This document shows positions 9,000 to 30,529 of a DNA stretch of 64,000 bases, piece after piece (within the stretch, counting starts at the first letter, position 1; each line of letters begins with the position of its first letter). The DNA is taken from positions 20,329 to 84,328 of the forward strand of contig CAZQBY010000003.1 in NCBI GenBank assembly GCA_964592405.1, read 5' to 3'. Source of the stretch: an uncultured archaeon. Lineage in GTDB: Archaea; Altiarchaeota; Altiarchaeia; JAFGQM01. The translations under genes were made by a program, and so were the position numbers. The notes under the pieces are model-generated. The model saw only the letters and a list, made by a program, of their open reading frames with translations. It had not been told where the DNA came from and did no database searches.

Positions 9000-9362
9000 A
9001 TGCTCAAGGTGTTCTGTTTCGGGAACGAGTGGGTGGAGGGCGACAGCTTGGCCAAGGAGCTGGCCGATGAATTGGAGATTGACGGAGTCAAGTTCATAAA
9101 ATGTGACGATGTTGAGGATGTGGAAGACGGTGTCATCTTGGATGTGGTGAGGGGGCTGGATGATGTCCAAGTGGTTACGGAGCTGGACCGATTCAAATCC
9201 CTCCAGCCATGTTCGGCTCACGATTTGGACCTGGCGTTCTTCCTTAAACTGCTGAAGGAGATGGGGCATCTGAACGAAGTGAAGATAATATGCCTGCCTA
9301 TGGGGATGGAGAAGGAAAGGGCCAAAAAAGAGCTTAGGAGGCTACTCCCAGACAACATCTAG
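9000..9362 (+). CDS. short hydrogenase maturation protease-like protein
   Basis: FCFGNEWVEGDS, VILDVV, SAHDLDL match the HycI/HybD GN..DD / D / H pattern; convergent with the large subunit. Confidence 0.75.
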   Translation: MLKVFCFGNEWVEGDSLAKELADELEIDGVKFIKCDDVEDVEDGVILDVVRGLDDVQVVTELDRFKSLQPCSAHDLDLAFFLKLLKEMGHLNEVKIICLPMGMEKERAKKELRRLLPDNI

Positions 9363-10613
9363 GAAATGTGTTGAACAGGAGATGCAGGGATCGTAGGCCC
9401 TGATGAGTTGCTCGATCTTGGATACTATCACGTCCCGGCTCTCGCCCAGGAGCGAAGGGAGCAGGGCCCTGATATTCTCCTCCATATTCTCCAGATTCTG
9501 CGACGTGGGGGTTGTGATGTTTATCCTCTTGGCGTAGCCATCCTTGTCAAACTCGTATTTGTGGAAGAGGATTCCCCGGGGCGCTTCTATGGCTCCGAAA
9601 CCCACGCCTTTTTTCGGTCTGACATCAGCCGGGTCTTCTTTCTTTACCTTGATGGTCTTTATTATTTCCTCTGCCCTCCTAAAGCCCTCGTATATCTCCA
9701 AGGCTTGGGCGAGATTGTTCATGTAGGGCGAAAACCTCTTCTTTTCAATGAGTTGGACATAGGGCTTCGATCCCCGCGAGAGGGCATCTCCATTGTTCAA
9801 TACCCTAGCCAGAGCGCCGACCATGTAGTCCTTCCCCCCGGCGTCGACGAACTCGGAGGTCGAGCCCGGGACAAAGTATTCCCTGAAATGTTTTTCATAG
9901 TCTCTCACAGGAACACATCGAATGCCCCTACACAAGATTGTCTTGTCGCCGAAGAAATAGGGTTCGCCCTTCAGCGCAAAATAATCTCTCTCCCTTTCAA
10001 ATTCTGGGTAGCTGAGCTTGGCGAAGGTCTTCATTGCGTTCTCCGCTGCCCTCCTGATGCCCCTGACTTGTTTTAGGAGGGCATCCAGCTCCTTCTGGTT
10101 GGGTTGTTTGGAGAATCCACCCGGCAGGAAGGTGAAGGGATGCACGTCCCGCCCCCCGACGACCCTGACCATCCCACTTGCGACCCTCTTTATCTTAAGG
10201 CCTTGCTCCAAGAGCGTCCTGTGTCTCTTGACCATGCCTAGGGCGCTGTCATACCCCAGATAGTCGGGCAGGACCATGAAGTACAGGTGGAGTGCATGGC
10301 TCTGAATGATGCCGCCCAGATGCGCGAGCTCTCTGAGGGCCCGGGTCTGTTTGGAGACTGATACATTGAAGGCGTTTTCTATGGCCCTGAGAGACGCCAG
10401 ACCGTGGGCTACGGAACACACGCCGCAGATCCTCGACGAGATGGGACCCAGATCCGTGTAGAGCTGGTTCCTGAGTATCTTCTCGAAAAACCTGCTCCCC
10501 TCAAATATCTCCAAATTGGCCTTTTTGATCTTATCTCCATCTATCTTGATGGTCAGCTTCGCGTGGCCTTCAATCTTGGTGACAAATTCCTTTTTAATGA
10601 TTTTTTCTGCCAT
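9342..10613 (-). CDS. hydA: [NiFe]-hydrogenase large subunit, group 3b-like
   Basis: TKIEGH, L1 SRICGVCSVAH, EAPRG, L2 RAYDPCISCSTH followed by 7-residue tail FLDVVWE. Confidence 0.93.
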   Translation of the reverse strand: MAEKIIKKEFVTKIEGHAKLTIKIDGDKIKKANLEIFEGSRFFEKILRNQLYTDLGPISSRICGVCSVAHGLASLRAIENAFNVSVSKQTRALRELAHLGGIIQSHALHLYFMVLPDYLGYDSALGMVKRHRTLLEQGLKIKRVASGMVRVVGGRDVHPFTFLPGGFSKQPNQKELDALLKQVRGIRRAAENAMKTFAKLSYPEFERERDYFALKGEPYFFGDKTILCRGIRCVPVRDYEKHFREYFVPGSTSEFVDAGGKDYMVGALARVLNNGDALSRGSKPYVQLIEKKRFSPYMNNLAQALEIYEGFRRAEEIIKTIKVKKEDPADVRPKKGVGFGAIEAPRGILFHKYEFDKDGYAKRINITTPTSQNLENMEENIRALLPSLLGESRDVIVSKIEQLIRAYDPCISCSTHFLDVVWE

Positions 10614-11367
10614 GTTTTGATTCCTTGAGTTCCTTCGAGCCGAACCTCCTGATCTTGTTTATGGCTTCCTTTTTGGAGATGCCAAAGGATTCCAGGAGTC
10701 TTATCTCTGCGTACAGATCGGCGTTCTCCAAGGGCCCTCTGCACAGAGTACAGGGCATGTTGTTCCTTATGCACAGGGCATTACAGCCGCCGTTGGTTAT
10801 GGGACCCAGACATTCTATCTTGTTCAGCATATAACAGTCAGGCTTCCCCCTCCGCGGGCACTCCAGACAGACGGGCCCTCTGAACTCCTTGGGCTTTTCT
10901 CCTTTTATGAACTGGCTGATAAACTGAATGAATTCGTCTTTGATTATCGGACAGCCGTACATGAAATAGTCGACCTTCACGAAGTCGCTTATGGGTGAAA
11001 CTTCGATCCAGTCCCTAGCAAGCTTCTGACTGTAGATATATTTTCCCAAGGCCCTTCGCTTGAGTTGGTTTCTCATGGCCGGAATCCCCCCATGGGCCGC
11101 ACACTCGCCGAAGGCCACAAGGTATTTTGACTTAGCCCTTATCCTCTTTAGCTCTCTCATCTCATGCTTGGAGGATATCGCCCCCTCCACAAAAGCCAGA
11201 TCAAAGTCTGTTTCAGCGTTCTTTTCCTTTATGAGATGGAAATACTGGATATCCAGTTTGTCAAACAACTCGAGCAGTTCATCTAGGAAAAGGACCGTGA
11301 ACTCGCAGCCTTCGCAGCACGTAAACGAGAAGAAACCGACCACCGGCTTGCCCCTCTCCATGAGCAT
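10594..11367 (-). CDS. hydD: [NiFe]-hydrogenase small subunit (delta-like)
   Basis: TCCEGC, GECA..GG, GCP, PVCLEC, CLGPIT.GGC.ALC...PC..CRGP Fe-S ligands. Confidence 0.9.
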   Translation of the reverse strand: MLMERGKPVVGFFSFTCCEGCEFTVLFLDELLELFDKLDIQYFHLIKEKNAETDFDLAFVEGAISSKHEMRELKRIRAKSKYLVAFGECAAHGGIPAMRNQLKRRALGKYIYSQKLARDWIEVSPISDFVKVDYFMYGCPIIKDEFIQFISQFIKGEKPKEFRGPVCLECPRRGKPDCYMLNKIECLGPITNGGCNALCIRNNMPCTLCRGPLENADLYAEIRLLESFGISKKEAINKIRRFGSKELKESKHGRKNH

Positions 11368-11469: not shown

Positions 11470-11781
11470 TTAGAAGCTGAATGCCATCTTCTTGGCCCTC
11501 CTGCCTGTCGTCATCTTGACCAGGCCGCCCGTTATCATGCCGACAGCAAAGGAGAGCAGGATTATCATCATGAACGATCCGTAGGTGATGTTGTAGTCGC
11601 CCTGGACCAGACCGTTGTATATCACAAGCACCAGGAAGGTCATTGTGGTCATGGATACACAAGTTAGTATTGCCGGTACCCAGGATATCATCCTCATTGT
11701 TCGCCCTATTGAGGAGAAATCTGGCATCTGCAGGCCTGTTCCCATGTCAAAAGGGCCAAAATCCTCCGGTTCACCGTCCAT
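11470..11781 (-). CDS. hypothetical membrane protein
   Basis: Two TM helices, acidic N-terminus, basic C-terminus. Confidence 0.5.
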   Translation of the reverse strand: MDGEPEDFGPFDMGTGLQMPDFSSIGRTMRMISWVPAILTCVSMTTMTFLVLVIYNGLVQGDYNITYGSFMMIILLSFAVGMITGGLVKMTTGRRAKKMAFSF

Positions 11782-11855
11782 TTTGGAAATAATTTGGGTT
11801 TAATTTAAAGTGTTGCTAATAAAAGGGCCTATGGACTAGGGACGAGAGACACTAA

Positions 11856-11861
11856 TTTAAG
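11856..11861 (+). promoter_or_regulatory. TATA-like box of tRNA-Arg
   Basis: TTTAAG about 20-25 nt upstream of the tRNA 5' end. Confidence 0.45.
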
Positions 11862-11879
11862 CAGCTCACCGACCTATGT

Positions 11880-12022
11880 GGGCCCGTAGGTTAGCCAGGA
11901 TATACTACGGGACTTCGGGAGCCCTTTTCTTCAAAAGAAAAGTGCTTCACCCCAAAAGAACGGGGTGCTGGGCAAACGGCTGGAGTCATCCCGTGACCCG
12001 GGTTCGAATCCCGGCGGGTCCG
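11880..12022 (+). tRNA. tRNA-Arg(UCG) with 69-nt intron (11919-11987) at 37/38
   Basis: Acceptor GGGCCCG/CGGGTCC; anticodon stem CGGGA/TCCCG with TCG at 11915-11917; T arm CCGGG TTCGAAT CCCGG; full BHB (CTTC/GGAG helix, bulges GG|G and TC|A, AGCC/GGCT); CCA not encoded. Confidence 0.93.
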
Positions 12023-12047
12023 TCTTACTGATGCTTAGCTGAGGCTC

Positions 12048-12120
12048 GACGGCCCCGCCTTATGTCGAGGTCATGTGCAGAGAGGATGTGTCCACCTCGC
12101 CATCCCGGTGGGTCCGTCCT
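12048..12120 (+). repeat. tRNA-trailer hairpin unit A (antisense and sense copy of the tRNA-Arg 3' end around a conserved core)
   Basis: 12102-12120 matches 12008-12026 at 17/19; 12048-12059 is 11/12 the reverse complement of the tRNA end; core shared with 38438-38495 and 30668-30711. Confidence 0.85.
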
Positions 12121-12168
12121 CATTCTTCATTGGCTTAACTAGCCTGTGCAATCCTTCCCTATTGATTT

Positions 12169-13719
12169 CTAGATCCTGTCCTTGCAGGCATCCCTCTGCC
12201 GCTTGTCCTCTATCTCATTACAGGCCTTACGAGCCATGGATGGGTTGTCGGAGGCCAGAATCCCAGCCAACTGCTGCAAGCAGTCCCATACCTGCTGATC
12301 ACTGGGCAGATCCAAACAAAGGCCTATGGCCAGTTGAGGACATTCCCTAGCCCTCCGGCCATAATCGTCACCGATTATACTTCGCACTGCACAGAATAGG
12401 TCATCTATATAGTCGCATATCTCGGTGACCTCCTGACAGGTCTCAGCCGACCACAGGAGATCCTGCAGACAGCTCTCCTTGCTCCACCCTCCTGACACAT
12501 GCTGGCAGACGGTAATTTTTTGAGATATATTCTCCATCAACTGCATGACTAAGCGGTAGCAATCCTCGGAGGACCGCCCAAAGGGAAAACCCTTAATCAT
12601 TCCGCAGGTCTCTATGGCAAAATTCAGGTCTGACGGGGCTGTGATGCGGGCTATCTTGACATAACAGTCAGTGGCCATTGTTCCCTCCATAGAACCACAA
12701 CAGTATTCCCTCGCCCCTGCAGGGTTTTCCATTATAAATTCGTCAGAACACGCGCTCCTGAAGCAGTCCTCCCTGCGATTCTTGCTTATGTGGTCCCTGC
12801 AGATTCTTATCGCTGAAAGAGGATTTTCCAAGTGTGCCATGACGCCATTAAGAAGGCAGTCGTCCCTCCGGTTGACTCCGGTTATCTTCAAGCATGCCTG
12901 TATTGCCTCCTGAAGAGAAGTGGAGACTATGTTCTCTGCCACCATATAAAAACAGTCATTTGAGTTCCCCTCAGAGAGCAAGCCACAGAGATCTAATACT
13001 CGGTCAGGATACTGCATTATGATATCCTTGGATTTCTGGAAGAGGTCCCAGTAACACATTTTGGAATCGGCCTCGTCATCTATTTTCCCACACAGTTCTA
13101 GGGAGAGGGATATATTCTGGTTGGCAGCTTCAATGCTTACCCTGCGATAGCACTCGTTCCTCATCTCAGCCTCGAAGAGCATATCGCAATACTTAGCCGC
13201 CTTTTGCGGATCTTCAGTAATTATCTTCTCCATCATATTCTTATAGCACCTGTCCCTGTCACCCAAGTCTGAAATTGAGGAACAGTCTGAAGGAGACTTC
13301 TTGAGTATCATGTTGGTGGATTCCTCTCCCGGAGCCCTGCTAAGAGCGTTTGCCATCAGAAGGAGCCCTGTTATCAAAAGTGCAATGGCGACTGCCAGAG
13401 TGGCAATGTTCTTTGGGCTGGCAAACCTTGCAGAAGTGACAGGACCTCCATATTTCCTCCGCAGTTCATCTATCTGCTTGCTGGCGAGGGAGAGCTCCTC
13501 CTCGTATTCGCGTATGAGCTTGTCGGCCTTGTCCCCCTCTATCCGCCTCCTGTAGAAGTCCAAGCGGGTGGTCTTTATCAGGTCCTTGAGCTGTTTCGTC
13601 CTCAGCTCCAGGCGGGACATCTCGTCGCCGGGTCCGCGGCTGCTGATCAGCCTGTAGAACAGAAAGGCGGCAATGCCTATGCATGCCAGGCCTGATATGA
13701 TGAGCTCCTCAGTTGCCAT
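12169..13719 (-). CDS. membrane-anchored protein with periodic Cys-pair helical repeats
   Basis: Two TM helices flanking a coiled segment, then about 10 C-x(9-12)-C[YFL] repeats (RDRCY, RNECY, RDDCL, REDCF). Confidence 0.75.
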   Translation of the reverse strand: MATEELIISGLACIGIAAFLFYRLISSRGPGDEMSRLELRTKQLKDLIKTTRLDFYRRRIEGDKADKLIREYEEELSLASKQIDELRRKYGGPVTSARFASPKNIATLAVAIALLITGLLLMANALSRAPGEESTNMILKKSPSDCSSISDLGDRDRCYKNMMEKIITEDPQKAAKYCDMLFEAEMRNECYRRVSIEAANQNISLSLELCGKIDDEADSKMCYWDLFQKSKDIIMQYPDRVLDLCGLLSEGNSNDCFYMVAENIVSTSLQEAIQACLKITGVNRRDDCLLNGVMAHLENPLSAIRICRDHISKNRREDCFRSACSDEFIMENPAGAREYCCGSMEGTMATDCYVKIARITAPSDLNFAIETCGMIKGFPFGRSSEDCYRLVMQLMENISQKITVCQHVSGGWSKESCLQDLLWSAETCQEVTEICDYIDDLFCAVRSIIGDDYGRRARECPQLAIGLCLDLPSDQQVWDCLQQLAGILASDNPSMARKACNEIEDKRQRDACKDRI

Positions 13720-13763
13720 CGTCTAATTAATGGGGATTATTAAAAAAAGGCAGTGGGGCAGGT

Positions 13764-14351
13764 TCAGCCGGTTATCTCCACTGAAGGTTTGTTAGTATCG
13801 GGCGACTGGACAGGGTGGGCATGCGTCTTGTTGTATATCCTGCCAGATTTCTTATCGACCCGGAAGCAAGTCACGACATTCCTGCCTATCAATTCGACAT
13901 AGTAGCAGTTGTCCCTTTCATAGATTTCCATCGTTTCATCCTCCGGAAAATTTTCCCTGCTTATATAATCAAATCCGGCTTTCCGCATGGAGCGTAAAAC
14001 AAAATCCACCGCCTTGTCGTTGTTCATATCCTTCGGGAATGGTAAGCAGGCCGGCAGGGATTTACTTGGTTCCCCAGGATCAACTGCTGCATACATAGAT
14101 GTATAGCCGGGTTCAAGGAGGTCGCCCTTGAGCTGGATAGTAAAGTCCTTGTAGATGGCGCTGTTCTTGGGAACATAGGTTATCGGGTTGCTGAAGTAGA
14201 CCCAAACCCCATCGTCCTTGAGAGTGACCTTCACACGATCGAACTCGCGAGAGGGGTCAAAGGGGGAGGGGAACAACTGCCCCTTCGCCAGCTCCACGGC
14301 CCTCCTTACTATGGCCTTCTTGCCCAGCCTTTTGAGCTTTTTGATGTCCAT
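13764..14351 (-). CDS. hypothetical protein
   Basis: 195-aa ORF filling the gap; C-terminal FRVDKKSGRI weakly PepSY-like. Confidence 0.6.
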   Translation of the reverse strand: MDIKKLKRLGKKAIVRRAVELAKGQLFPSPFDPSREFDRVKVTLKDDGVWVYFSNPITYVPKNSAIYKDFTIQLKGDLLEPGYTSMYAAVDPGEPSKSLPACLPFPKDMNNDKAVDFVLRSMRKAGFDYISRENFPEDETMEIYERDNCYYVELIGRNVVTCFRVDKKSGRIYNKTHAHPVQSPDTNKPSVEITG

Positions 14352-14534
14352 ACGCTACCTCACTTGGCCGGAATCTGTGCAGCTGGCCCATATACTATCT
14401 GAGTTGGTTAGGATACCAACTCTGCCCCTAACTTGTATAATATCTAGATTATGAAGAGCTGGATAAAAATGGGACCCCGTCAGACTGAAGTGCCCATGGG
14501 GGGAACAAAGGAGAGTCTTAGGAGGGGTTTCAGC

Positions 14535-15701
14535 CTAATCCTTCACCCATGCCAGCAGCAAGATGGCAGCAGTCAAAGACAATACCGCTCCAAAGCTAAA
14601 TGCTGCCTCGACACTGAAGAACTGCCAGAGCGAGCCCATGATGAACGATGCTGGGAATGCCGCCAGACCGACCGCAGTGTGGTAAATGCCGTAAGCAGTT
14701 CCTCTGTGTGCTTCGTCCACAAGGTCGGGTATCAGCGCTCTGGCACTGACTTCATAAATCGCTTGGAATATGGCATAAGCAGCGAAAAGTAGCCAGAGCA
14801 TAGAAGTGTTATTCATGAAACCAAATCCTAGGCTGACTATTGCAAAGGTAATGAAACTGGATGATAAGACTATCTTCTTGCCCACCATATCCGAAAGGCT
14901 TCCGGCCGGCATCGCAGCTGTGGCATATATTATATTATAGAAAAGGTAGAGCAGGGGCACTAGGCCAAGGGTCATGCCCATATCCTGTGCACGTATGAGG
15001 AGGAAGGCATAGCTGAAGTTTCCCAGCATGAACAGAGAGGAAACAAAAACGAACCGCTTGAACCCGCTGCTGAAGCCTCTGAGGCTCAGAGTCACTGACA
15101 GTCTCCTGCTGGCATGGCACCTCTTCTCCTTCACGAACATAAGTATTGTGAGAACTGACAGGATGCCGGGCACTGCAGTCAGTAGGAAGATGAGCTGGAA
15201 TGACATCGAGAGGAAGTAGAAGAGCACAAAGGCTATGGCAACTCCAGCAACCGCCCCAGAGGTATCCATCATCCTGTGGAAACCAAAAGACCTCCCCTCA
15301 TGTGCCTTTTGGGAAGAGGCAGCTATAAGGGCATCTCGGGGGGATGTCCGCACTCCCTTGCCGATACGGTCAACGAATTTTATGGCGAGGACAAAGGGCC
15401 ACGAGCTGGCAAGGGATAAAAGCGGTTTGGTCAGGTTGGATATAGCATAGCCGGCAACCACAAGGGGCTTTCTGGAACCAAATCTGTCGGAAATCCAGCC
15501 GGAGAGCAGTTTGAGCATGCTGGAGGAGCTCTCGGCAACGCCCTCTATGAGGCCAACTATTGCCTCACCAGCGCCAAGGACATTGGTCAGGAAGAGAGGC
15601 AAGAGGGAGAGTATCATCTCACTGCTCATATCATTGAAGAAACTGGCAATACCCATGAAGAGGATGTTCCGGTTTATGCCCGCCCTGATTGGCTTTGCCA
15701 T
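14535..15701 (-). CDS. MFS transporter
   Basis: 12 TM helices; GWISDRFGSRK and GSLSDMVGKK motif A; DRIGKGVRTSPRDA. Confidence 0.92.
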   Translation of the reverse strand: MAKPIRAGINRNILFMGIASFFNDMSSEMILSLLPLFLTNVLGAGEAIVGLIEGVAESSSSMLKLLSGWISDRFGSRKPLVVAGYAISNLTKPLLSLASSWPFVLAIKFVDRIGKGVRTSPRDALIAASSQKAHEGRSFGFHRMMDTSGAVAGVAIAFVLFYFLSMSFQLIFLLTAVPGILSVLTILMFVKEKRCHASRRLSVTLSLRGFSSGFKRFVFVSSLFMLGNFSYAFLLIRAQDMGMTLGLVPLLYLFYNIIYATAAMPAGSLSDMVGKKIVLSSSFITFAIVSLGFGFMNNTSMLWLLFAAYAIFQAIYEVSARALIPDLVDEAHRGTAYGIYHTAVGLAAFPASFIMGSLWQFFSVEAAFSFGAVLSLTAAILLLAWVKD

Positions 15702-15736
15702 GCTAATATTGATATTAGGATAAAAAAGAATTGGAT

Positions 15737-16504
15737 TTACTCCTCAATCCGGTTGAACTGCCTTATAGCAAACAGCATGAACAACACAGTCAGACTGGAT
15801 ATTGCCAGAAAGGAGACACCAAAGTCTATTCCTGAAGAGCCCAAGATGAGATATCTGAGGCCGGCCACACCATATGTAAGAGGGTCAAAGAGAGAGGCTG
15901 TCCTGAGGAAATCCGGCGCGGAGGATAGGGGAAACAGCGCGCCGCTCAGGAAGAACATGGGCATGATGAGGAAGTTCATTATCAGCTGGAATCCGTGCAT
16001 GTCAGTCATGGTGGATGCAATGGCTATGCCCAGTGAGACGAACATCATGGATATCATGAACATGAAGACCAACAGGAGAAGGATATTGACCAGCTGCACC
16101 TGCGCCCCCAAAAGGATAGCTATAATCATTATAATTATGCCCTGTATGACCGCAGTGGTCGCGCCGCCCAGTCCCTTCCCCAGGACCACCGAAAGCCTGC
16201 TTATAGGGGCGACGAGTGTCTCCTTCAGGAAGCCAAACTGCCGGTCCATGATAACTATTATGCCGGAGAACATGGAAGCAAACATCAGCACCATGCCGAT
16301 TATGCCGGGCGCGATGAACTGGAGGTAGCCACCCTCTATGGGAACCGCAATGGTGCTGTTAAGGCCGGTGCCCAGAATGGCGAGGAAGAAGAATGGCATC
16401 CCCAGACTGCCTATCAGCCTGGACTTGGATCTGAAGAACCTGATGAGCTCTCTCTTCCAAAGCGCGTATATGCCCTCTATCTCCCTGTTCATCGTCCCCC
16501 CCAT
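15737..16504 (-). CDS. ABC-2 type exporter permease (DrrB-like)
   Basis: FIAPGI, DRQFGFLKETLVAPISR, FLSGALFP, PLTY. Confidence 0.9.
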   Translation of the reverse strand: MGGTMNREIEGIYALWKRELIRFFRSKSRLIGSLGMPFFFLAILGTGLNSTIAVPIEGGYLQFIAPGIIGMVLMFASMFSGIIVIMDRQFGFLKETLVAPISRLSVVLGKGLGGATTAVIQGIIIMIIAILLGAQVQLVNILLLLVFMFMISMMFVSLGIAIASTMTDMHGFQLIMNFLIMPMFFLSGALFPLSSAPDFLRTASLFDPLTYGVAGLRYLILGSSGIDFGVSFLAISSLTVLFMLFAIRQFNRIEE

Positions 16505-17496
16505 GCCTTGCGCCTGAGGCGCATCCCCGCCCTCGGGTCGGCCTCCCCCTCCCGTATGGTGCGGCCTGTGTAGTGCAGGAATACATCGTCAAGCGAGGGT
16601 TTTCTGAGGCTCACCGATTCCACGGTGATGCCCTCCTTCTCCATGAAGCGCATCAGGGCAGGTATCTTCTCCTCGCCCTTCTCTACGCGGACGTCTATAT
16701 ACCCGTTGTGCTTGACGGCGGACTTGACCCAGCCGAGACCCAAAAGTCGGGATACGCGGGGGTCACCATCACTGCACTTCAACGAAATGACATCTCCGCC
16801 CAGCTTGTTTTTGAGGCTTTCGGGCGCATCTACTGTGATAATCTTTCCGTGGTCTATTATGGCGAGCTTGTCGCAGACCTTGTCCGCCTCGTCCATGTAA
16901 TGCGTTGTCAGTATTATGGTGATGCTCTCGGATTTGTTCAGCTTCTTTATGTACTCCCATATGCTGGCCCGGGTCTGGGGATCCAGACCTAGGGTGGGCT
17001 CGTCGAGGAAAAGCACCTTGGGATGATGGAGGAGGCCGCGGGCTATCTCCAGGCGCCTCTTCATGCCGCCGGAGAACTTCTTCACCACGACGTTGAGCCG
17101 GTCGCCCAGCTCCACGATGCCCATCAGCTCAGCGATGCGCTCGTCCCTGATGTCTTTGGAAATCCCATACATGGACGCATGTATCTCCAGATTCTCCCTT
17201 GCGGTCAGCTCGTCATCGAGGCTTGGATCCTGAAAGACTATGCCGATGCTTTTTCTCACAGAGTCCGCTTGTTTTGAGATATCGAAGCCGTTGACAAGGG
17301 CAGTCCCGGAGGTTGGCCGACGCATTGTGACAAGCATGGATATCAGGGTTGTCTTGCCGGCGCCATTGGGACCAAGGAGACCAAATATTGTACCTGCCTC
17401 CACCGACAGGCTGACTGAATCAACAGCGGTGAAATCGCCATATGCCTTCGTTAGGCCTTTGGCTTCAATTGCATTTTTAGTCATTGCGCGCGCCAT
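16489..17496 (-). CDS. ABC exporter ATP-binding protein (DrrA-like)
   Basis: Walker A GPNGAGKT, signature FSGGMKRR, Walker B LFLDEPT, TTHY. Confidence 0.93.
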   Translation of the reverse strand: MARAMTKNAIEAKGLTKAYGDFTAVDSVSLSVEAGTIFGLLGPNGAGKTTLISMLVTMRRPTSGTALVNGFDISKQADSVRKSIGIVFQDPSLDDELTARENLEIHASMYGISKDIRDERIAELMGIVELGDRLNVVVKKFSGGMKRRLEIARGLLHHPKVLFLDEPTLGLDPQTRASIWEYIKKLNKSESITIILTTHYMDEADKVCDKLAIIDHGKIITVDAPESLKNKLGGDVISLKCSDGDPRVSRLLGLGWVKSAVKHNGYIDVRVEKGEEKIPALMRFMEKEGITVESVSLRKPSLDDVFLHYTGRTIREGEADPRAGMRLRRKAWGGR

Positions 17497-17564
17497 CCCG
17501 GGATATTTGAGGTGGGGGGATTAAAAATGGGGGCTCGGAGGACATTGCAACCGGCGAGGCCCAC

Positions 17565-18287
17565 CTATCTTTTTCGTTGGCCAAATTTGTCCACGCTACC
17601 AAGTATCCTCCTTGTCAGGCGGTCGCCCTTCTCTAGGAACTCCCCGGCCATGCTCCTGAGTATCCTGTTCTCCCTAACCCAGCCATAGACGAGGAAGAAT
17701 GCTGAGGCTCCTGTCACGACCATGAATACTATTGTTGGGGTAAGAAAGGGCACGAGTCCAAGAGCCATATACCACCAGAAGACTATTGCGACAGCGCCCC
17801 CAATGCTTATGGCTATTATGGCGCGCTTAAGGCGTATCCTGAGGAAATATGCCACAATTCCCGCAACATAAACCCCATAGGCAAAACTTACAAGACCCAA
17901 AGCCATGTAAAAACCCAGATCGCCGAAGCTGCGTCTGAAGCTGAGGGTTAGCTCGCCCGCTCTGCCCACTATCTCTCTCCGGCTTTTGTGGATATAGGTT
18001 GCAACCTTATCAAGAATCTTGTTCTCAAACCGCTTCTCGGTAGGAAGGAGATGTAGTATGGAGTAAAGGAACAGAACCGAAAGCAACTCAAAGAGCAGGA
18101 GCAGAGAGAGGTGCGCCAGGGGCCTGAAAAGAGGATTGCCCAGACCGTAAGATATTGCCATTCCCGGGCCGAAGACCACGGATATGAATAGGAACTGGGT
18201 CAGGAAAGTGGTTCTTAAGAGGCGAAGGAGGAGCAGAGCAGCTGTTATGAGAAGTATCAATGGAACAAGGAATCGCCTAGATTTCAT
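17565..18287 (-). CDS. hypothetical multi-pass membrane protein
   Basis: 5-6 hydrophobic helices. Confidence 0.65.
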   Translation of the reverse strand: MKSRRFLVPLILLITAALLLLRLLRTTFLTQFLFISVVFGPGMAISYGLGNPLFRPLAHLSLLLLFELLSVLFLYSILHLLPTEKRFENKILDKVATYIHKSRREIVGRAGELTLSFRRSFGDLGFYMALGLVSFAYGVYVAGIVAYFLRIRLKRAIIAISIGGAVAIVFWWYMALGLVPFLTPTIVFMVVTGASAFFLVYGWVRENRILRSMAGEFLEKGDRLTRRILGSVDKFGQRKR

Positions 18288-18387
18288 GAATTATGTTCGG
18301 TCTTTGGGGATAAAAAAGGCTTTATGGTCCAACCGGGGGGGCATTCCGGAGAGTAGACTTTTTATAGGATTATCTACAAACATAAGG

Positions 18388-18437
18388 AACTCCGCGTGGA
18401 ATGTGGGGGGTAACCCTGAACCGAAGAGGAGGTTGAA
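18388..18437 (+). promoter_or_regulatory. candidate structured 5' leader of rpl15e
   Basis: TATA-like TTTTATA at about 18359-18365; two hairpins, the second (AACC/GGTT, loop GAACCGAAG) covering the SD-like GAGGAGG. Confidence 0.4.
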
Positions 18438-19037
18438 ATGAACGAAAAAAAATTTCTTACTGTAATAGAGCCGAAGAGGAGGGCAGCTGTGCTAGCCCTC
18501 AAAGAGAAGGACCCGGACGAATACAAGCAGACCATAAAGGAGCTGCGGCAGGTTTGGGTCGGAAGGGGCCGCATCTGGAGGAAGGGCGAAGCAGTGGTGA
18601 AGGAGAAAAAACCACTCAAGGCATGGCGGGCTAGGGAATTAGGCTGGAAGGACAAACCCGGTCTCATCGCAGTTGTGGTTCGTGTTGGGAAGGGTAACCG
18701 CAAGAGAAGACAGACCTCTGGCGGAAGAAAACCCGCAAAGGCTTATGATTACGCGACCCTTGACAAGTCGAAGCAGACGCAGGCTGAGGAGCGCGCAAAC
18801 CGCAAGTTTCCCAACTGCGAGGTGCTTGGTTCCTACTGGCTCTGGGAGGATGGCCAATATAAGTATTTTGAGGTTATACTAGCTGATCCAAACAATCCCC
18901 ATGTAAAGAATGACAAAGAGCTGAACTGGATATGCTCGGGCAAACAAAAGGGGAGAGTATATCGCGGTCTTACGCCCTCTGGAAAGAAGAGCAGGGGGCT
19001 TAGGGGAAAAGGCAAAGGCGCTGAGAAGGTGAGATAA
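18438..19037 (+). CDS. rpl15e: 50S ribosomal protein eL15
   Basis: RARELGWKDKPG, AEERANRKFPNCEVLGSYW, YKYFEVIL.DP, GRVYRGLT..GKKSRGL. Confidence 0.95.
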   Translation: MNEKKFLTVIEPKRRAAVLALKEKDPDEYKQTIKELRQVWVGRGRIWRKGEAVVKEKKPLKAWRARELGWKDKPGLIAVVVRVGKGNRKRRQTSGGRKPAKAYDYATLDKSKQTQAEERANRKFPNCEVLGSYWLWEDGQYKYFEVILADPNNPHVKNDKELNWICSGKQKGRVYRGLTPSGKKSRGLRGKGKGAEKVR

Positions 19038-19038
19038 A

Positions 19039-20178
19039 ATGTTATTTGCAAAAAGGATAGTGGATGTGCCGCCATCTGCAACGTTCAAGTATGCTGCAAT
19101 GGCCAAGAGGGAAGGTATTATAAACCTGACTATAGGCAGACCGGGCTTTGATACCCCGAGGATTATTGTCGAAGCGGCCAAGAAGGCGCTTGATGAGGGC
19201 AAGCACCACTATGGTCCCAGCAAGGGCATTCCGGAGCTGAGGGAGAAGATTGCAGAGAAGCTCGTCAGGGAGAATGGCCTTAAAGACATTGATAGTGAAA
19301 AGATTATTGTCAGCATGGGGGCCAAGAATATCCTCTATGAGATATTCACGGTTATGATAAATGATGGTGAAAAGGTCGCTATACCAAATCCCTCGTGGGT
19401 CAGCTATGAGAGCATGGTAACGCTGGCAGGAGGCAAGACTGTATGGATACCGCTAAAGCCGGAAAATGGTTTCATCCCGGACGAGGACTTTCTCACGGAG
19501 CTGGACAACTCTGGAGCCAAGATGGTTGTCATAAACAGCCCCAACAACCCTACTGGTGCAGTCTATCCAAAAGAGACTCTCAGGGAGATAATCAAGATAG
19601 CAAAGGCTAATGATATGTGGATTATCTCGGATGAGTGCTATGAGACAATAATCTATGATGAAAAGCACTTCAGCATAGGTTCTGAGTATGACAAAACCAT
19701 AACTGTCAATGCCTTCTCAAAGCCGTTTTCCATGACCGGATGGCGGCTAGGTTATGCAGCATGCCCGGAATTTGAGGTTATTGAGAAGATGAATATCCTG
19801 CAACAGCAGTCCGTCTCAAATCCAGTCACATTTGCCCAATACGGCGCGCTGGCCTGTTTCACAGACGAGGCACGGGAGGCCGCGAGCAGGATGAGAGATG
19901 AGTTCAGAAAGAGGCGCGATTATTCGATGAAGAGGATAAAGGACTTCAACTGCACATGTCTGAAACCGGGCGGAGCATTCTATATCTTCCCATATTTTGA
20001 AGGACAGGATGATGTAGAACTAGCAGATAGTCTCCTAGAAGCTGGTGTAGGGACTGTTCCCGGTTCGCCGTTTGGCACACAGGGGAGAGGCTGTATCCGC
20101 ATCAGTTACGGCAATGCTGATGTAAGAATCCTGAAAGAGGCCTTTGACCGAATGGCGACCGTAAAGGGGCTGGTATGA
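19039..20178 (+). CDS. PLP-dependent class I/II aminotransferase (aspartate aminotransferase-like)
   Basis: NSPNNPTG, SDECY, NAFSKPFSMTGWRLGY. Confidence 0.92.
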   Translation: MLFAKRIVDVPPSATFKYAAMAKREGIINLTIGRPGFDTPRIIVEAAKKALDEGKHHYGPSKGIPELREKIAEKLVRENGLKDIDSEKIIVSMGAKNILYEIFTVMINDGEKVAIPNPSWVSYESMVTLAGGKTVWIPLKPENGFIPDEDFLTELDNSGAKMVVINSPNNPTGAVYPKETLREIIKIAKANDMWIISDECYETIIYDEKHFSIGSEYDKTITVNAFSKPFSMTGWRLGYAACPEFEVIEKMNILQQQSVSNPVTFAQYGALACFTDEAREAASRMRDEFRKRRDYSMKRIKDFNCTCLKPGGAFYIFPYFEGQDDVELADSLLEAGVGTVPGSPFGTQGRGCIRISYGNADVRILKEAFDRMATVKGLV

Positions 20179-20218
20179 GGCCTTCCCACCTTTTTATTCT
20201 TGAACCAGTTAAAGAGAT

Positions 20219-20449
20219 ATGGAGAAGCGGGGTACAGGATATGCCCATGAGATGCTCGTAGCGTTCTTCTTCCTAATATTGGTTGTAACATTCTACGCCA
20301 GCGACTACCAGCTAGCCATGCCTGCCATACTGCTCATGGCGGGTGGAGTTATGATACTTGGGGGGAGTGTTATAAAAGAGCCACTTATCATAACGGCTGG
20401 TGTTGTGTGTCTGGCCATAGCGCTTATGTATTCAGAAGTATTTAAATAA
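20219..20449 (+). CDS. small membrane protein
   Basis: Three TM helices. Confidence 0.6.
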   Translation: MEKRGTGYAHEMLVAFFFLILVVTFYASDYQLAMPAILLMAGGVMILGGSVIKEPLIITAGVVCLAIALMYSEVFK

Positions 20450-20473
20450 TTTAAATAGTTTCCGCCCTTAAGA

Positions 20474-21319
20474 TTGGTGATGGATCCGCTCACAATAGCC
20501 CTTGTAACCGTATCCATGTTTGTTCTATTCCTGATGCTAACCTCCGGCCACAGAAGACACCGTCTTGAGGAGGCTCTCAAAAAACTGGAAAAGGAGCGGA
20601 TGCGCCTGATGAAATCCATAGAGCATGTAAAGCTCTCCTTTTACCACAAGAAACTGGATGAGAAGGAGGCACAGGACAGGATATTTGAGTACGAGGAAAA
20701 GTTACGTAACGTGCAGGACAGGATACTTGAGATAAAGGAAAAGCCGCTAATGCGCACGATAAAGAAACATGAGGAGGAAGACAAAAAGGCAGTCAAGGAA
20801 GAAGCTGGGGAGATAAGAGAATCGGAAAGGCTGATGATGGCAAACTTTGCAGCGAGATCCGTTGTCATTCTGTTCGTGATGGCGGCAGTGGCGATAATGG
20901 TTGTTTCTGTCATCTTTGGTATACGGTGGGGTGAAACACCATCCGGCTCCAACCCTTTCTTACAGATACCGGTGAGTGCGCGTATATCACCCGAGGGGAG
21001 TACATACCCCGGCAGCTCTGCAGGTCTGAGGGTTGAGATGAGTAACACACTGGACAAAAATCTTGAGGATGTGAGGGTAACTGTAAGAGCGCCCAAAGGC
21101 AGTGGCATAGACTTCGGAGAAGGGGAAATCGGGGTGAAGATAATCCCGGAGCTGGAGAGAGGGGGAGTTAGAGAAGTCTACTTCCCAATAAGGATAAACC
21201 AGGATGCAGAGGAGGGGGAGTATATCATAGGGGTAGAAGCAGAGAATGATTATGATAATCTCAAGGCATCGACCACGGCGAGGCTTGTAGTCAGAGTGGG
21301 GGCAGAAGAGAATGCTTGA
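20474..21319 (+). CDS. membrane protein with cytoplasmic coiled segment and C-terminal Ig-like (CARDB/COG1361-like) domain
   Basis: TM-coil-TM, then VEMSNT...V.V.V.AP, EVYFPIRI..DAEEGEYII. Confidence 0.65.
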   Translation: MVMDPLTIALVTVSMFVLFLMLTSGHRRHRLEEALKKLEKERMRLMKSIEHVKLSFYHKKLDEKEAQDRIFEYEEKLRNVQDRILEIKEKPLMRTIKKHEEEDKKAVKEEAGEIRESERLMMANFAARSVVILFVMAAVAIMVVSVIFGIRWGETPSGSNPFLQIPVSARISPEGSTYPGSSAGLRVEMSNTLDKNLEDVRVTVRAPKGSGIDFGEGEIGVKIIPELERGGVREVYFPIRINQDAEEGEYIIGVEAENDYDNLKASTTARLVVRVGAEENA

Positions 21320-21749
21320 TACAATAAGACGGATAAAATGGAGGAACATCGCAGGTCTGACAGCTCTTATACTGGTAGTGTTCTTCCTAGTTTATCTTGT
21401 ATCCTTCATAACCACGCTGTTGTATGGCGACTGTGTGGAAAAGGAGAACATCAAGGTATGTTTTTCTGTCGGGAAACAGAGTCTGGAGAGATATGGTGCA
21501 ACGGTCATAACAGCAGAGATAACCAATACGGGCAGGACTGTTTCAGGAGCAGTTGTCAATATGCGGCTCTCACCAAATCTGGACAACCTGTCTAGCACCA
21601 CTCAGGAGGTCGAGACCATGGCCCCGGGCGATACTGTCAAGCGCGAGTTCAGGATAGCCGCCAAGGGTGAAAGAGGGAGATTCAGGGTGGAATTTGACAC
21701 AAATTCAGACAACAAGCCGGACAAAGAGATGTTCATCACAGTTGACTAG
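21312..21749 (+). CDS. membrane-anchored Ig-like (CARDB-like) protein
   Basis: N-terminal TM; ITAEITNTG, MAPGDTV..EF. Confidence 0.6.
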   Translation: MLDTIRRIKWRNIAGLTALILVVFFLVYLVSFITTLLYGDCVEKENIKVCFSVGKQSLERYGATVITAEITNTGRTVSGAVVNMRLSPNLDNLSSTTQEVETMAPGDTVKREFRIAAKGERGRFRVEFDTNSDNKPDKEMFITVD

Positions 21750-21788
21750 GCTTGCTGATCGGTTTTATAGGTTCTCCTTCTAATTACA

Positions 21789-22922
21789 ATGGGGCAGAAA
21801 ATGATAGACAGGAGCGAAATCCAGGAGATTGCTGCCGGATATGAAACCGTCACAATTGGTGCGCTCGGATCACATTCTGCCTTGGACATCTCAAGGGGCG
21901 CCAAGGACGAGGGGTTTAAGACCATTGTTGTCTGCCAGAAGGGCCGCGAGAAGACCTACGACAGGTATTTCAGAAGCCGGGGCAGCATAGGGGTTGTAGA
22001 CGAGACCATAATCCTGGACAAATTCAGCCAGATAGCCAACCCTGAGATTGTGAAAAAACTAGTTGAAAAGAATACAATATTTTTACCACACAGGTCTTTT
22101 GAGGTGTATGTTGGTTATGACAAGATTGAGAATGAGTTTCGGGTTCCCCTTTTTGGTTCACGCAGCATGCTACGGGCAGAGGAGAGGACAGCACCTCGCA
22201 ACCAGTACTGGTTGATGGAACGGGCCGGGATACCCCACCCCAGAATCTACAGGAATGTGGAGGACATTGACCGGCTTGTCTTGGTCAAGGTGGCAGAGAA
22301 GCAGAGGAGCTATGAAAGGGCATTCTTTCTGTGCACCTCTCCGGAAGAGTTTAACAAAAAGGCAGACGACCTTATCAGGGCAGGGAGGATAACCGAAGAT
22401 GCACTGAAGGATGCTGTCATTGAGGAATTTGTAATGGGTGCACAGGTAAACTTCAACTATTTCTACTCTCCGCTGGAGGACCGGCTGGAGCTTTTGGGCA
22501 CTGACACGCGGAGGCAGACCAACCTGGACGGCATACTGAGGCTGCCGGCGCCACAGCAGCTGGAGGCACTTAGATATGTGGAGATGCAGTCGATTGAAGC
22601 AGGCCATATCGCCACCACGATAAAGGAGTCGCTGCTGGAGCAGGTGTTCGAGCTGGGCGAACGATTTGTCGAAGTGAGTAAAAGGGAATATCCACCCGGC
22701 ATAATCGGGCCGTTTGCACTGCAGGCCACTTTTATCCCCGGACCACCGAAGGAGAAGGCTGTCGTCTTTGACATCAGTCTGAGGGTCCAGGGCTCGCCGG
22801 GGACCAAGTTCACGCCATATTCGGGCTATCTTTTTGGCGAGGAGATTTCAGTCGGGCGAAGGATTGCTATTGAGATAAAGAACGCGATTAAGCAGAATAA
22901 ATTAGAGGAGGTTATAACTTAG
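21789..22922 (+). CDS. purP: FAICAR synthetase family protein (PurP-like, ATP-grasp)
   Basis: LGSHSALD, FNYFYSP, PPGIIGPFALQ, GRRIA.EI. Confidence 0.9.
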   Translation: MGQKMIDRSEIQEIAAGYETVTIGALGSHSALDISRGAKDEGFKTIVVCQKGREKTYDRYFRSRGSIGVVDETIILDKFSQIANPEIVKKLVEKNTIFLPHRSFEVYVGYDKIENEFRVPLFGSRSMLRAEERTAPRNQYWLMERAGIPHPRIYRNVEDIDRLVLVKVAEKQRSYERAFFLCTSPEEFNKKADDLIRAGRITEDALKDAVIEEFVMGAQVNFNYFYSPLEDRLELLGTDTRRQTNLDGILRLPAPQQLEALRYVEMQSIEAGHIATTIKESLLEQVFELGERFVEVSKREYPPGIIGPFALQATFIPGPPKEKAVVFDISLRVQGSPGTKFTPYSGYLFGEEISVGRRIAIEIKNAIKQNKLEEVIT

Positions 22923-22923
22923 A

Positions 22924-23139
22924 ATGATGAGAAAACCTGGAAAGGGAAGGAGACGTCCAAATAGGCGGCCTACGACAGCTGGGGAGTTGCATCGGCAACA
23001 CAATATCAAAAGATCTGCAGTGAAAGCAGGACTGAAAGCAAAACTGGGAAGAGAACCCACGGAGGCAGAAGTGAATGCTGAGCTTGCAAGGGTTATTAGC
23101 ATGGAGAGGCAGAGAAGGGTCCAGCATCTGGATGACTGA
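22924..23139 (+). CDS. small basic hypothetical protein
   Basis: Fills the gap between the purP paralogues exactly; Arg/Lys-rich; contains LGREPTEAEV. Confidence 0.55.
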   Translation: MMRKPGKGRRRPNRRPTTAGELHRQHNIKRSAVKAGLKAKLGREPTEAEVNAELARVISMERQRRVQHLDD

Positions 23140-23144
23140 AAAGC

Positions 23145-24176
23145 ATGACAAAACCAATCATAACCACTGTATGTTCCCACTCGTCGCTGCAGATATTCCA
23201 CGGCGCGCGCAGGGAGGGGGTGAAGACCCTCGGGATATGCCTAAAGGAGCCGCCCAAGTTCTACGACGCCTTCCCGCTGGCCAAGCCGGACGAGTTCTTC
23301 GTCATTCAGGACTACCAGGACCTTCTCAAGCCCGAGGTGGCCAAAAAGCTGAAGGCCAAGGGTGCTGTCATCGTGCCACATGGCTCGTTTGTGGAATATA
23401 TGGGCGCGCAAAACTTCAAGAAGCTGGACATCCCAGTCTACGGCAACAAGGCCGTGCTGGATTGGGAATCAGACCGCAGGAAGGAGCGACAGTGGCTGGA
23501 GGGGGCAGGCATCCGCATGCCAAGGGAGATAAAAAGGCCCGAGGACATCAATGGCCCGGTCATAGTCAAATACCACGGCGCCAAGGGCGGGAGAGGATTC
23601 TTTATAGCAAAGAACAGAAGGGAGTTCGATGAGAATGTGGATAAAAGCCAGAAATACACCATCCAGGAGTTCATACCCGGGGCGCGCTTCTACTTCCACT
23701 ATTTCTACTCGCCCCTAAAGGAGGACGGCTACAGGCTGAGCAAAGGCACGCTCGAGCTGCTGTCCATGGACAAGCGGGTGGAGAGCGACATAGACGAGAT
23801 ATTCAAGCTGGGCTCGATGAGCGAGCTCATGGGCGCCGGCATCACACCTGGATTCACAGTTGCCGGCAACATCCAGCTGGTCCTGAGGGAGTCGGTCCTG
23901 CCGCGGGTTCTGGAGATGGGTGCGCGCACCGTGGAGGAGAGCATCAGGCTCTTCGGCGGCCTGTGGGGCCCGTTCTGCCTTGAGTGCATAATCGACAAGG
24001 AGCTGAACATCTATGTTTTCGAAATCAGCGCGCGCATAGTGGCCGGGACCAATATAGCAGTCCCCACTTCCCCATACTCGGCTTTCATACAGCCGGAGCT
24101 GACCACGGGCAGGCGCATTGCCCAAGAGCTCAAGCTGGCTGCTGAAAAGGGGAAACTGGATGAGGTGCTGAGTTAA
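23145..24176 (+). CDS. purP: FAICAR synthetase PurP (second paralogue)
   Basis: CSHSSLQI, PHGSFVEY, GAKGGRGFF, GPFCLE, FEISARIVAGTN, TGRRIA. Confidence 0.92.
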   Translation: MTKPIITTVCSHSSLQIFHGARREGVKTLGICLKEPPKFYDAFPLAKPDEFFVIQDYQDLLKPEVAKKLKAKGAVIVPHGSFVEYMGAQNFKKLDIPVYGNKAVLDWESDRRKERQWLEGAGIRMPREIKRPEDINGPVIVKYHGAKGGRGFFIAKNRREFDENVDKSQKYTIQEFIPGARFYFHYFYSPLKEDGYRLSKGTLELLSMDKRVESDIDEIFKLGSMSELMGAGITPGFTVAGNIQLVLRESVLPRVLEMGARTVEESIRLFGGLWGPFCLECIIDKELNIYVFEISARIVAGTNIAVPTSPYSAFIQPELTTGRRIAQELKLAAEKGKLDEVLS

Positions 24177-24247
24177 GGTTTTTAAGACCAATCCACCTAA
24201 CTACAAGGGCCATTTCCCGGTCTGGATTGGCCAGATAGCAATCTGTT

Positions 24248-25639: not shown

Positions 25640-25689
25640 GCTTTTTATAGTTCGCCCTTTATACTTATGAGGGGGTCTAACTTCTGAAA

Positions 25690-26079
25690 ATGGCCAGGAC
25701 TATTGATGCTGAGGTCGCTGTGATAATTCTTGTGGGTTTTCTGCTGACGGTCTCTGGTATATACCTCAACTTCCAGAACTTGGAGCAGGTGCAGAGAAAG
25801 AATTTTGAGAATCCCGATGAGATATATCGAAATGAGATAATCTATGGAGTAGTTCAGATAATAGGGATGGCAATAATCTTTGTGGGAACCACCCGCGGGC
25901 TAATGCGGAGAACCGACATCATGGCAAACAAATTCGTGAACATCATGGACGTGTTCACGACTCTAGTGAAGAAGCAGATGGAGGTCATCGACAGTACTGA
26001 GGCCAGGAGCAATCTCAGGGAGATAGAGGAGAAAAGCCAGAGGTTCAAGGACGAAATGAAGACCCTGAAGAGGATTTAG
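25690..26079 (+). CDS. hypothetical membrane protein
   Basis: Two TM helices plus C-terminal coiled region. Confidence 0.6.
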   Translation: MARTIDAEVAVIILVGFLLTVSGIYLNFQNLEQVQRKNFENPDEIYRNEIIYGVVQIIGMAIIFVGTTRGLMRRTDIMANKFVNIMDVFTTLVKKQMEVIDSTEARSNLREIEEKSQRFKDEMKTLKRI

Positions 26080-26134
26080 CAGCATGTCTAGGGCGGCACG
26101 TCGCCTTTTTACGCTTTCCCTTCTAGTTTAACCC

Positions 26135-28319: not shown

Positions 28320-28488
28320 GTCCAGATATGGGTTTAATCCCGGCACAGTTCGGATAGGAACAGGATATCAAGGCTCCTTGCATCCGTCATGTTTTCCAGA
28401 TATCTCAAATTGGTTTGGGATTCAAAAGTAAAATTGTGAGCGGATGCGTGCGAGATTTTTATAGTTCGACGCATTACTTAAGAAGAAA

Positions 28489-30194: not shown

Positions 30195-30362
30195 AGTTCC
30201 GGCCACCTGAGCCCAGTCGGAAGAAGGAGGATTTCCTGGCCAGTGGCCTGACATAAAGGTCCGGGAAATGAGGGTGCAGGCTTTTCAAGATTAGTCTTTT
30301 ATTTTGGAATATTCTAACTAAGCGCCATTGTCCGAATTGGAGAAGGCATTTGGAATCGTTGT

Positions 30363-30529
30363 GCGGCCGTGGTGTAGTCTGGTATCACTCAAGCCTTCCA
30401 CGACCTTTTCTCGGAGAAAAGGTCGATCAAAAGAGGCCTTCGCCTCGTGAAGGCGCTTTCGGTCGACCGTGGACTAGAGACTGGGAGCGGAGTGAGCTTG
30501 GAACCCGGGTTCGAATCCCGGCGGCCGCA
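30363..30529 (+). tRNA. tRNA-Gly(UCC) with 94-nt intron (30401-30494) at 37/38
   Basis: Acceptor GCGGCCG/CGGCCGC; anticodon stem CAAGC/GCTTG with TCC at 30397-30399; T arm CCGGG TTCGAAT CCCGG; CTTC/GGAG central helix and TG|A bulge (relaxed BHB). Confidence 0.92.

Follow-up and report, generated by a model that had tools for sequence, protein, structure and literature searches.

What kind of element is about 90 nt long, contains no gene and carries, around a hairpin, sequence fitted to the tRNA gene behind which it stands? The question is raised by a 64,000-nt stretch of an archaeal genome (G000:C3:20329-84328, hereafter the window), which belongs to an assembly, G000, of 1.13 Mb in 22 contigs with 49% G+C and 87% completeness. 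The DNA of this organism is present in hydrothermal-vent metagenome runs. tRNA genes are classic landing sites of integrating viruses and plasmids, and the passengers known from them are kilobases long and bring their own integrase. Intron-aware calling located three tRNA genes in the window, for tRNA-Arg(TCG), tRNA-Gly(UCC) and tRNA-Gly(GCC), and all three are followed by units of the same layout: a linker, an inverted arm complementary to the tRNA 3' end, a core hairpin and a further copy of the 3' end. Here we describe these units across one archaeal family and weigh, as a tentative preferred explanation, that they are small cassettes inserted one after another at tRNA genes.

At the tRNA-Arg(TCG) locus all parts of a unit could be assigned on the forward strand, as at the other two window loci. 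The gene (11879-12024, called by ARAGORN with introns; C3:32207-32352) contains a 69-nt intron, and its last 17 nt, from A59 of the T-loop to the discriminator base (12008-12024), form the first 3'-end copy. The linker that follows (12025-12047) is pyrimidine-rich and then bears a TAGC..GCTCG-like motif, which in an alignment of 67 units was kept in three of four genera. Next comes the inverted arm (12048-12059), the reverse complement of the acceptor 3' strand and of two T-stem bases; the antisense copy claimed in the sequence-only reading was recomputed, and its reverse complement agrees with the tRNA end at 12013-12024 in 11 of 12 positions. The core hairpin (12060-12101), assigned by predicted fold and pair counts, consists of TTATG, a covarying stem, a variable apex (GGTCAT..GCAGAGA..TGTCCACC type) and a closing C. 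It is followed, at an offset of 94 nt, by a downstream sense copy of the tRNA-Arg 3' end (12102-12120). The 17/19 identity of this copy with 12008-12026 was reproduced, a level that none of 2000 mononucleotide-shuffled versions of the 200 nt behind the gene attained. The common core reported for two of the loci (12054-12111 against 38438-38495, 46/58 ungapped) was likewise recovered, as were the 3'-end copies at an offset of 93 nt behind tRNA-Gly(GCC) (12/17) and of 104 nt behind tRNA-Gly(UCC) (11/19 ungapped). Beyond the tRNA-Arg unit lies a linker-like remnant ending in AATCC (12120-12154), with no arm, core or 3'-end copy, which to judge from its sequence is probably a collapsed second unit. 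A metagenome contig from run X2 spans 11822-12675 with an identical arrangement. When four metagenome runs were mapped to 11500-31000, no joint or variant was found at the units, and the joints seen at tRNAs came from tRNAs of other organisms. As a separate observation, read by eye, the acceptor stem of tRNA-Arg(TCG) contains a G3:U70 pair, and the base of the inverted arm that faces U70 at this locus is a pyrimidine, and not G or A, in G000 as well as in G001 and G002 of the same genus.

The extent of the units was established by inspecting by eye the 260 nt 3' of all 33 tRNA genes that ARAGORN with introns found in G000 (many of them with introns of 19-204 nt) and by a covariance model, R1, built with a two-helix structure from an alignment (A1) of 13 hairpins. 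R1 gave 14 strong matches in G000, all behind tRNAs, at 12 of the 33 genes; one of them covers the arm, core and downstream copy at tRNA-Arg(TCG) (12048-12117; C3:32376-32445; 70.7 bits, E=1.3e-16). About six further tRNAs are followed by variant, truncated or contig-end units, namely Ser-GGA, Ser-GCU and a tRNA at a contig end (all three with one different core), Gln (a short unit), Arg-GCG (cut at a contig end) and Thr-GGU (truncated), and about 15 have no unit. The claim that every tRNA gene is so trailed therefore stood for the window (3/3) but fell, genome-wide, to about 18/33. All 17 matches at E<10 that a profile from ten units returned in G000 (nhmmer) were also at tRNA 3' flanks.

The family to which G000 belongs was represented by eight genomes from four genera, 63-87% complete, within a phylum set of 61 genomes of one class. 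R1 had matches in each of the seven other family genomes, with 4-15 apiece. In the search of the 61 genomes it was found in 8/8 family genomes and in 0/53 others at E<=0.001; across 33 other genomes of the class there was one weak match (E=0.006). Sixty-two regions were fetched around 78 R1 matches in relatives, and 69 of these matches have a co-oriented ARAGORN tRNA no more than 500 nt upstream, with first units typically 16-28 nt and second units about 105-165 nt away from it. The remaining nine each stand after a copy of the same tRNA 3' end, behind tRNAs that could not be called or behind orphan 3' fragments. Linkage to tRNA 3' ends is exclusive, the core never being met away from tRNAs, which would have counted against the earlier proposal, and the units are restricted to one archaeal family. 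A metagenome scan returned 20 loci, of which eight (nine matches) hold true units of the same architecture, six of them beside an ARAGORN tRNA, and no longer, gene-bearing version of the unit was seen at these loci. The other 12 lie in coding-like DNA and were rejected as arising by chance. The units correspond to no Rfam family: in the window, at the gathering threshold, only 5S rRNA and two tRNAs were found, and in 14 unit-bearing loci searched at E<=1 the matches fell on tRNAs and their 3' ends and none on the arm-core hairpins. Several tRNAs of the family are missed by ARAGORN altogether. N runs and contig ends lie within arrays of units (G000 C14:19841-20300, C17:5970-6425, C18:8246-8600, and the ends of C3 and C6), where the assembler evidently struggled; the true array lengths are probably greater than those assembled.

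The construction of the units is uniform. Parsing of 96 tRNAs (the 33 from G000 and those in the fetched loci of relatives) yielded 79 units free of N, 67 of which have a period of 83-99 nt, with a mode of 91-93. In an alignment of 67 units, a single architecture emerged across the four genera: a 3'-end copy (ATCC, the T-stem 3' strand, the acceptor 3' strand and the discriminator), a linker of about 22 nt (pyrimidine-rich at first, then TAGC..GCTCG-like), the inverted arm, CTTATG, a covarying stem with a variable apex making up a hairpin of about 45 nt, and CATCC, which opens the next copy. Arrays contain 1-4 units per tRNA, and cores often differ within an array. Where the two flanking copies differ, an arm located without bias to either flank agrees mostly with the upstream one (for first units, n=81 positions: upstream 51, downstream 6, neither 24; for later units, n=29: upstream 15, downstream 5, neither 9), and it pairs also with the first 1-2 bases 3' of the upstream discriminator. 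The inverted arm that had been described was thus present, but its better partner is the copy upstream of it, including those 1-2 extra bases, and not the downstream copy. This indicates that the physical unit is copy, linker, arm and hairpin, the last copy of an array standing alone. Downstream copies are often decayed, as at Gly-GCC (12/17), Ala-GGC and Phe, which indicates that the first copy is the working tRNA end. In two cases, a metagenome contig (locus L125) and unit 1 of tRNA-Arg(UCU) in genome G003 (L035/L078), two small hairpins with ACACGA...TCGTGT-like inverted repeats around them are nested between the core stem and the CATCC border.

The hairpin is real. In the 13 aligned hairpins under the two-helix structure, 76.5% of the pairing cells are paired, against 65.6% in shuffles, with 0 of 500 shuffles reaching the observed value, and control registers slid along the alignment gave 31-46%. 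The covariation that the sequence-only reading had anticipated was found as well, with changes on both sides in 14 of 20 pairs. The core stems of 63 units contain 544 Watson-Crick pairs (86%), 9 G:T, 24 A:C and 53 other oppositions. Mismatches recur at given sites: positions 0 and 3 of the core stem and, in the arm stem, the places facing nt 70-71.

Comparison between loci showed that the core is independent of the identity and orthology of the host tRNA. Mean core identity was 0.48 for 39 pairs of orthologous tRNAs from different genomes, 0.47 for different tRNAs of one genome and 0.46 for different tRNAs of different genomes; cores at least 80% alike were found in 1/39, 7/303 and 41/1825 of these pairs, respectively. 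At the syntenic tRNA-Arg(TCG) locus of three genomes of the same genus, the linker, the arm and the CTTATG and CATCC borders align, and the apex differs in all three; a full second unit is present in two of them, and in G000 there is only the remnant at 12120-12154. A collapsed remnant is also found behind Thr-GGU in G000. Tandem units are identical at Val-UAC, Ser-GCU and His in G000 and at Val-GAC in G003. Near-identical units stand at different tRNAs that have a 3' end in common (Ala-UGC and Ala-GGC in G000 and G004; Ser-GGA and Ser-UGA in G005). This distribution suggests cassettes that are moved or exchanged according to 3'-end sequence and not a structure inherited with the gene.

The two strands of the hairpin are not equivalent. 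On the tRNA strand, de-duplicated core stems have 9 G:T against 23 A:C (binomial p=0.02), and of 62 de-duplicated hairpins 49 fold more stably as the complementary strand (mean -32.2 kcal/mol, against -29.7 for the tRNA strand), in statistics that treat related copies as independent and therefore overstate the p-values. In a control with 18 intron-less tRNAs, the antisense strand was more stable in just three and the sense strand in 15. An RNA hairpin made from the tRNA strand would be expected to tolerate G:U pairs and to avoid A:C. The A:C excess and the stability of the complementary strand speak against an RNA trailer of the tRNA and favour a structure of the bottom strand, either DNA or antisense RNA.

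A true integrating element was found at a tRNA gene of the same family. In contig 38 of G003, an element of about 11 kb (18208-29312; loci L122-L124) sits at tRNA-Thr(GGU) (18208-18282). Downstream of the tRNA stand a small hairpin and a series of GGTCT.C.GTCTT motifs, then the gene of a tyrosine integrase of 370 aa (PF00589, E=7e-20) and, after it, a type IIG restriction-modification gene that resembles Eco57I; the right end, at 29.29 kb, bears AAGACCGAAGACC motifs and a tRNA repeat of about 31 bp starting in the T-loop. Short distal units lacking an arm carry both end motifs, GGTCT.C.GTCTT and AAGACCGAAGACC, which identifies them as miniatures of this integrase element family. The element and its miniatures together indicate that attachment at the T-loop/3' end is active in the family and that elements do become miniaturised. 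A tRNA is adjacent at three of the five integrase loci over the cut-off: two integrases of G001 have tRNA-Ser and tRNA-Tyr as neighbours and share the left-end motif of the G003 element, and a third, in G003, lies beside tRNA-Arg without it. The arm-bearing units have no sequence in common with the integrase element ends. Two further observations were made at such sites. At 29290-30172 of G003 contig 38 (L080), a direct repeat of about 62 bp (tRNA-Thr 3' end and flank) surrounds about 760 bp that hold an open reading frame of 218 aa, a partial 3'-end copy and a hairpin unit; the reading frame has no Pfam match and no relative in its own genome or in the fetched loci. Orphan tRNA-Ser 3' fragments starting inside the T-loop (TCAAATCCCAG...) and preceded by AAGAC-rich sequence (L058, L109, L138) are probably right ends of integrase elements, or alternatively parts of split tRNA genes.

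Taken together, we favour, at a little short of an even chance, the reading that the units are non-autonomous cassettes of about 90 nt serially inserted by site-specific recombination at the T-loop attachment site/3' end of tRNA genes. Each cassette would bring along a tRNA 3' end of its own, which starts at A59 and stops 1-2 bases beyond the discriminator, together with the linker of about 22 nt, an arm complementary to that 3' end and the hairpin of about 45 nt. Insertion would leave a working tRNA and displace the earlier 3' end downstream, where decay would follow; repeated insertion and unequal crossing-over would generate arrays. The arm-bearing cassettes may still be moving at present. 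The hairpin might serve, on the strand opposite to that of the tRNA, as an attachment site of folded single-stranded DNA, by analogy with integron attC and the attP of CTX phages, and a folded single-stranded site fits the bottom-strand signature and the fixed mismatches. The arms could be set for each tRNA in two ways, either by separate lineages per tRNA whose cores are shuffled at the conserved CTTATG and CATCC borders, or by templated correction of the arm against its partner. We consider it quite unlikely that the units are integrated single-stranded and probably circular mini-cassettes of about 90 nt, in which arm and copy mimic the target duplex and which an unrecognised enzyme of host or element inserts at matching tRNA 3' ends. 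If this were true, they would constitute a hairpin-guided, retargetable insertion system of archaea, an analogue of attC and CTX attP recombination without a known recombinase.

The idea of a non-autonomous element mobilised in trans, already advanced in the sequence-only reading, accordingly fits most of the evidence (uniform units, arrays, independence of the core, near-identical units at tRNAs with a common 3' end, exclusive linkage to tRNAs and use of the same site by the integrase element and its miniatures) but has no consistent enzyme partner, and several results weigh against it. Co-occurrence was tested for seven candidate Pfam families in the eight family genomes. The tyrosine recombinase family PF00589 was over the cut-off in 2/8 (a match at E<=0.001 in 4/8), the archaeal integrase PF16795 in 0/8, a resolvase in 1/8 and a reverse transcriptase in 0/8. 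HUH Y1 transposases are present in 4/8, yet also in 9/33 other genomes. The co-occurrence with a tyrosine recombinase, HUH nuclease or reverse transcriptase that had been proposed as a check thus turned up no consistent partner. Cas1 (PF01867) was found in 0/8, which leaves a CRISPR- or casposon-like insertion without its enzyme. Genome G005 (20 contigs, 85% complete) contains 10 units and none of the searched enzymes. No full-length, gene-bearing relative of the arm-bearing units was found in the eight genomes or among the true metagenome matches, and viral contigs scanned with one core pattern gave 0 matches. The absence of enzymes is weak evidence, because these genomes are incomplete bins, a kind of assembly from which mobile DNA tends to go missing. 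The comparison of empty and filled sites, at the downstream flanks of tRNA-Ala(AGC) and tRNA-Lys(UUU) in G000 and G002, gave no readable insertion borders, since these candidate flanks are not syntenic and could not be aligned. A double-stranded circle of 90 bp is too stiff for ordinary integrase chemistry, the cassette reading leaves the matching of both arms to a new tRNA unexplained, and the overstated p-values of the strand comparison count on the same side. A link to IS200/IS605 was tried and rejected, because the ends of the family copy are unrelated to the units and the Y1 transposase is not specific to the family; in G000 a fragment of such a transposase, with an in-frame TAG, lies at the start of a contig (C1:66-212).

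Three other explanations were considered alongside the cassettes. The units could be a functional trailer in the tRNA transcript, mimicking an acceptor/T-arm minihelix and serving as a back-up terminator, as a signal for processing by RNase P or tRNase Z, or as a regulator competing for the acceptor 3' strand. Such a role would account for their sharing the orientation of the tRNA at a constant distance (16-28 nt for most first units), for their presence in 8/8 family genomes, for stems that covary and arms that complement each host tRNA, for the pyrimidine-rich tract after each 3'-end copy, which resembles native trailers, and for the helix of 10-13 bp formed by arm and copy, whose 3' strand is the tRNA's own. 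We nevertheless regard it as unlikely: units occur at just about 18 of 33 tRNAs, orthologous tRNAs differ in cores and unit numbers, and downstream copies and arms are decayed. The co-transcribed structure on the tRNA strand, which had been offered as the other half of the earlier proposal, is further disfavoured by the excess of A:C over G:T on that strand and by its lower stability in 49/62 hairpins, the reverse of what tRNAs show. Passive scars, left by the collapse of large integrated elements, tandem duplication and gene conversion between tRNA flanks with no cassette involved, are a second explanation, which we hold to be equally unlikely. Large integrase elements do use the site and their short derivatives sit in the arrays; the identical tandem units, the absence of recombinases from most family genomes and the collapsed remnants at 12120-12154 and behind Thr-GGU in G000 agree with such a history. 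Random deletion, however, would not yield a uniform unit of 88-94 nt with the same internal order in four genera, the arm-bearing units do not resemble the integrase element ends, an inverted arm fitted to each host tRNA is not expected from integrase scars, and mismatches at fixed sites look selected and not decayed.

It would also be conceivable that the units are introns of the T-loop, or else alternative 3' exons, with the archaeal splicing endonuclease cutting them out at bulge-helix-bulge sites and small circular RNAs as the product. The T-loop is a known non-canonical intron position, and the 3'-end copies start there; tRNA genes of the family are crowded with introns of 69-204 nt built from similar hairpin modules, and in Ser-type units, read by eye, the TGAA before CAT-CCCAG could pair with the TTCA of the T-loop, which would make a bulge-helix-bulge partly formable. 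In the common unit type, by contrast, the sequence leading up to the 3'-end copy shows, again read by eye, no complementarity to the T-loop, so that the central helix of 4 bp between the two 3-nt bulges would probably not form; moreover, the first copy already completes the tRNA, later copies decay, and the strand signature points away from the tRNA strand. This explanation therefore seems very improbable.

Among known systems, the units share features with elements integrated at tRNA genes by tyrosine recombinases. There, a direct repeat of the 3' part of the tRNA from the T-loop flanks the insert (here 15-19 nt from A59), the tRNA survives whole, and one insertion after another leaves an array of partial tRNA copies; the element at tRNA-Thr in the G003 relative is a true member. 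The units of about 90 nt differ in having no gene and no integrase, which only the 11-kb element of G003 carries within it, and in adding an inverted attachment copy and a hairpin. In one report, tRNA fragments flank elements of 9-23 kb (10.1101/2022.07.05.498093). Integrons have been reported in Archaea as well (10.1101/2022.02.06.479319). Like integron attC sites, the units form arrays in which each ends in an imperfect hairpin of about 70 nt, where an unpaired spacer separates an outer stem from an inner one with mismatches at fixed places and the apex is variable, and folding of the bottom strand appears to be favoured here, as judged with copies treated as independent. Unlike attC, no GTTRRRY or RYYYAAC box is present in the 67 units, whose outer stem is the 3' end of the host tRNA (ATCCCGG...); there is no integron integrase, the "cassette" amounts to a 22-nt linker, and the platform is a tRNA gene instead of attI.

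CTX-type phages integrate as folded single-stranded DNA, with two inverted attachment arms around a loop; CTX is a 7-kb phage that uses the host XerCD at dif. Integration of a folded attachment site predicts, at one end of the element, an inverted attachment copy, a loop and an attachment copy with an imperfect stem, which is the layout found here. Here, by contrast, the whole element would be about 90 nt, the target is a tRNA gene, and a Xer-like recombinase was not found in 4/8 family genomes. Like miniature inverted-repeat transposable elements (MITEs), REPIN/REP elements and the palindrome-associated elements of IS200/IS605, the units are small and non-coding, form hairpins, exist in multiple copies and do not extend beyond one lineage. 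Those elements are dispersed in intergenic DNA with fixed ends, whereas the units stand at tRNA 3' ends only and their arms vary with the host tRNA. An autonomous partner with the same ends, as expected for MITEs, was found for the arm-less distal units and for none of the arm-bearing ones in the eight genomes, viral contigs and metagenome matches. Literature searched mostly at abstract level contained no description of such units. We see them as a variant of tRNA-site integrative elements and their miniatures, with a modest chance that their mechanism is one undescribed in Archaea.

The other two window loci show further states of the same layout. The tRNA-Gly(UCC) gene, which has an intron (30363-30531, ARAGORN), is followed by a variant unit, type B (30532-30634). 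After its linker comes the arm GGTGCGG (30555-30561); the core, of CTTCGCTTCAC type, is longer than usual, and the 3'-end copy behind it (30622-30634) is degenerate. A type B unit is also found behind tRNA-Arg in two relatives. A second unit behind tRNA-Gly(UCC), of the common type and with decayed arms, extends over 30655-30723 (R1 match C3:50983-51051, 48 bits, E=4.5e-10). The tRNA-Gly(GCC) gene (38335-38409, ARAGORN) is followed by a single unit (38410-38502; R1 match C3:58760-58829, 61.2 bits) with a linker, an arm (38433-38443), a core and a decayed copy (38486-38502, 12/17). tRNA introns of the family are very long (69-204 nt in G000) and are made up of several short GC-rich hairpin modules, as in the window at 11879-12024 and in G001:C53 (L055); modules of this kind were also seen inside some downstream units. 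The remaining surroundings are ordinary: genes for the large and small subunits of a [NiFe] hydrogenase (9342-11367, reverse strand; Pfam) lie upstream of tRNA-Arg, and a 5S rRNA gene is located at 42922-43037 on the forward strand.

For work on these lineages, the arrays have a practical consequence, as they break assemblies and can mislead the annotation of tRNAs and pseudogenes. For the biology of the family, the finding is that archaea from vents carry arrays of gene-less 90-nt cassettes at tRNA sites, with both arms tailored to the host tRNA. If the cassettes are mobile, they would be among the smallest site-specific elements known, and one would have to ask by what process the arms are copied or selected for each tRNA. 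Otherwise, the units would record unusually fast recombination at the 3' ends of tRNA genes.

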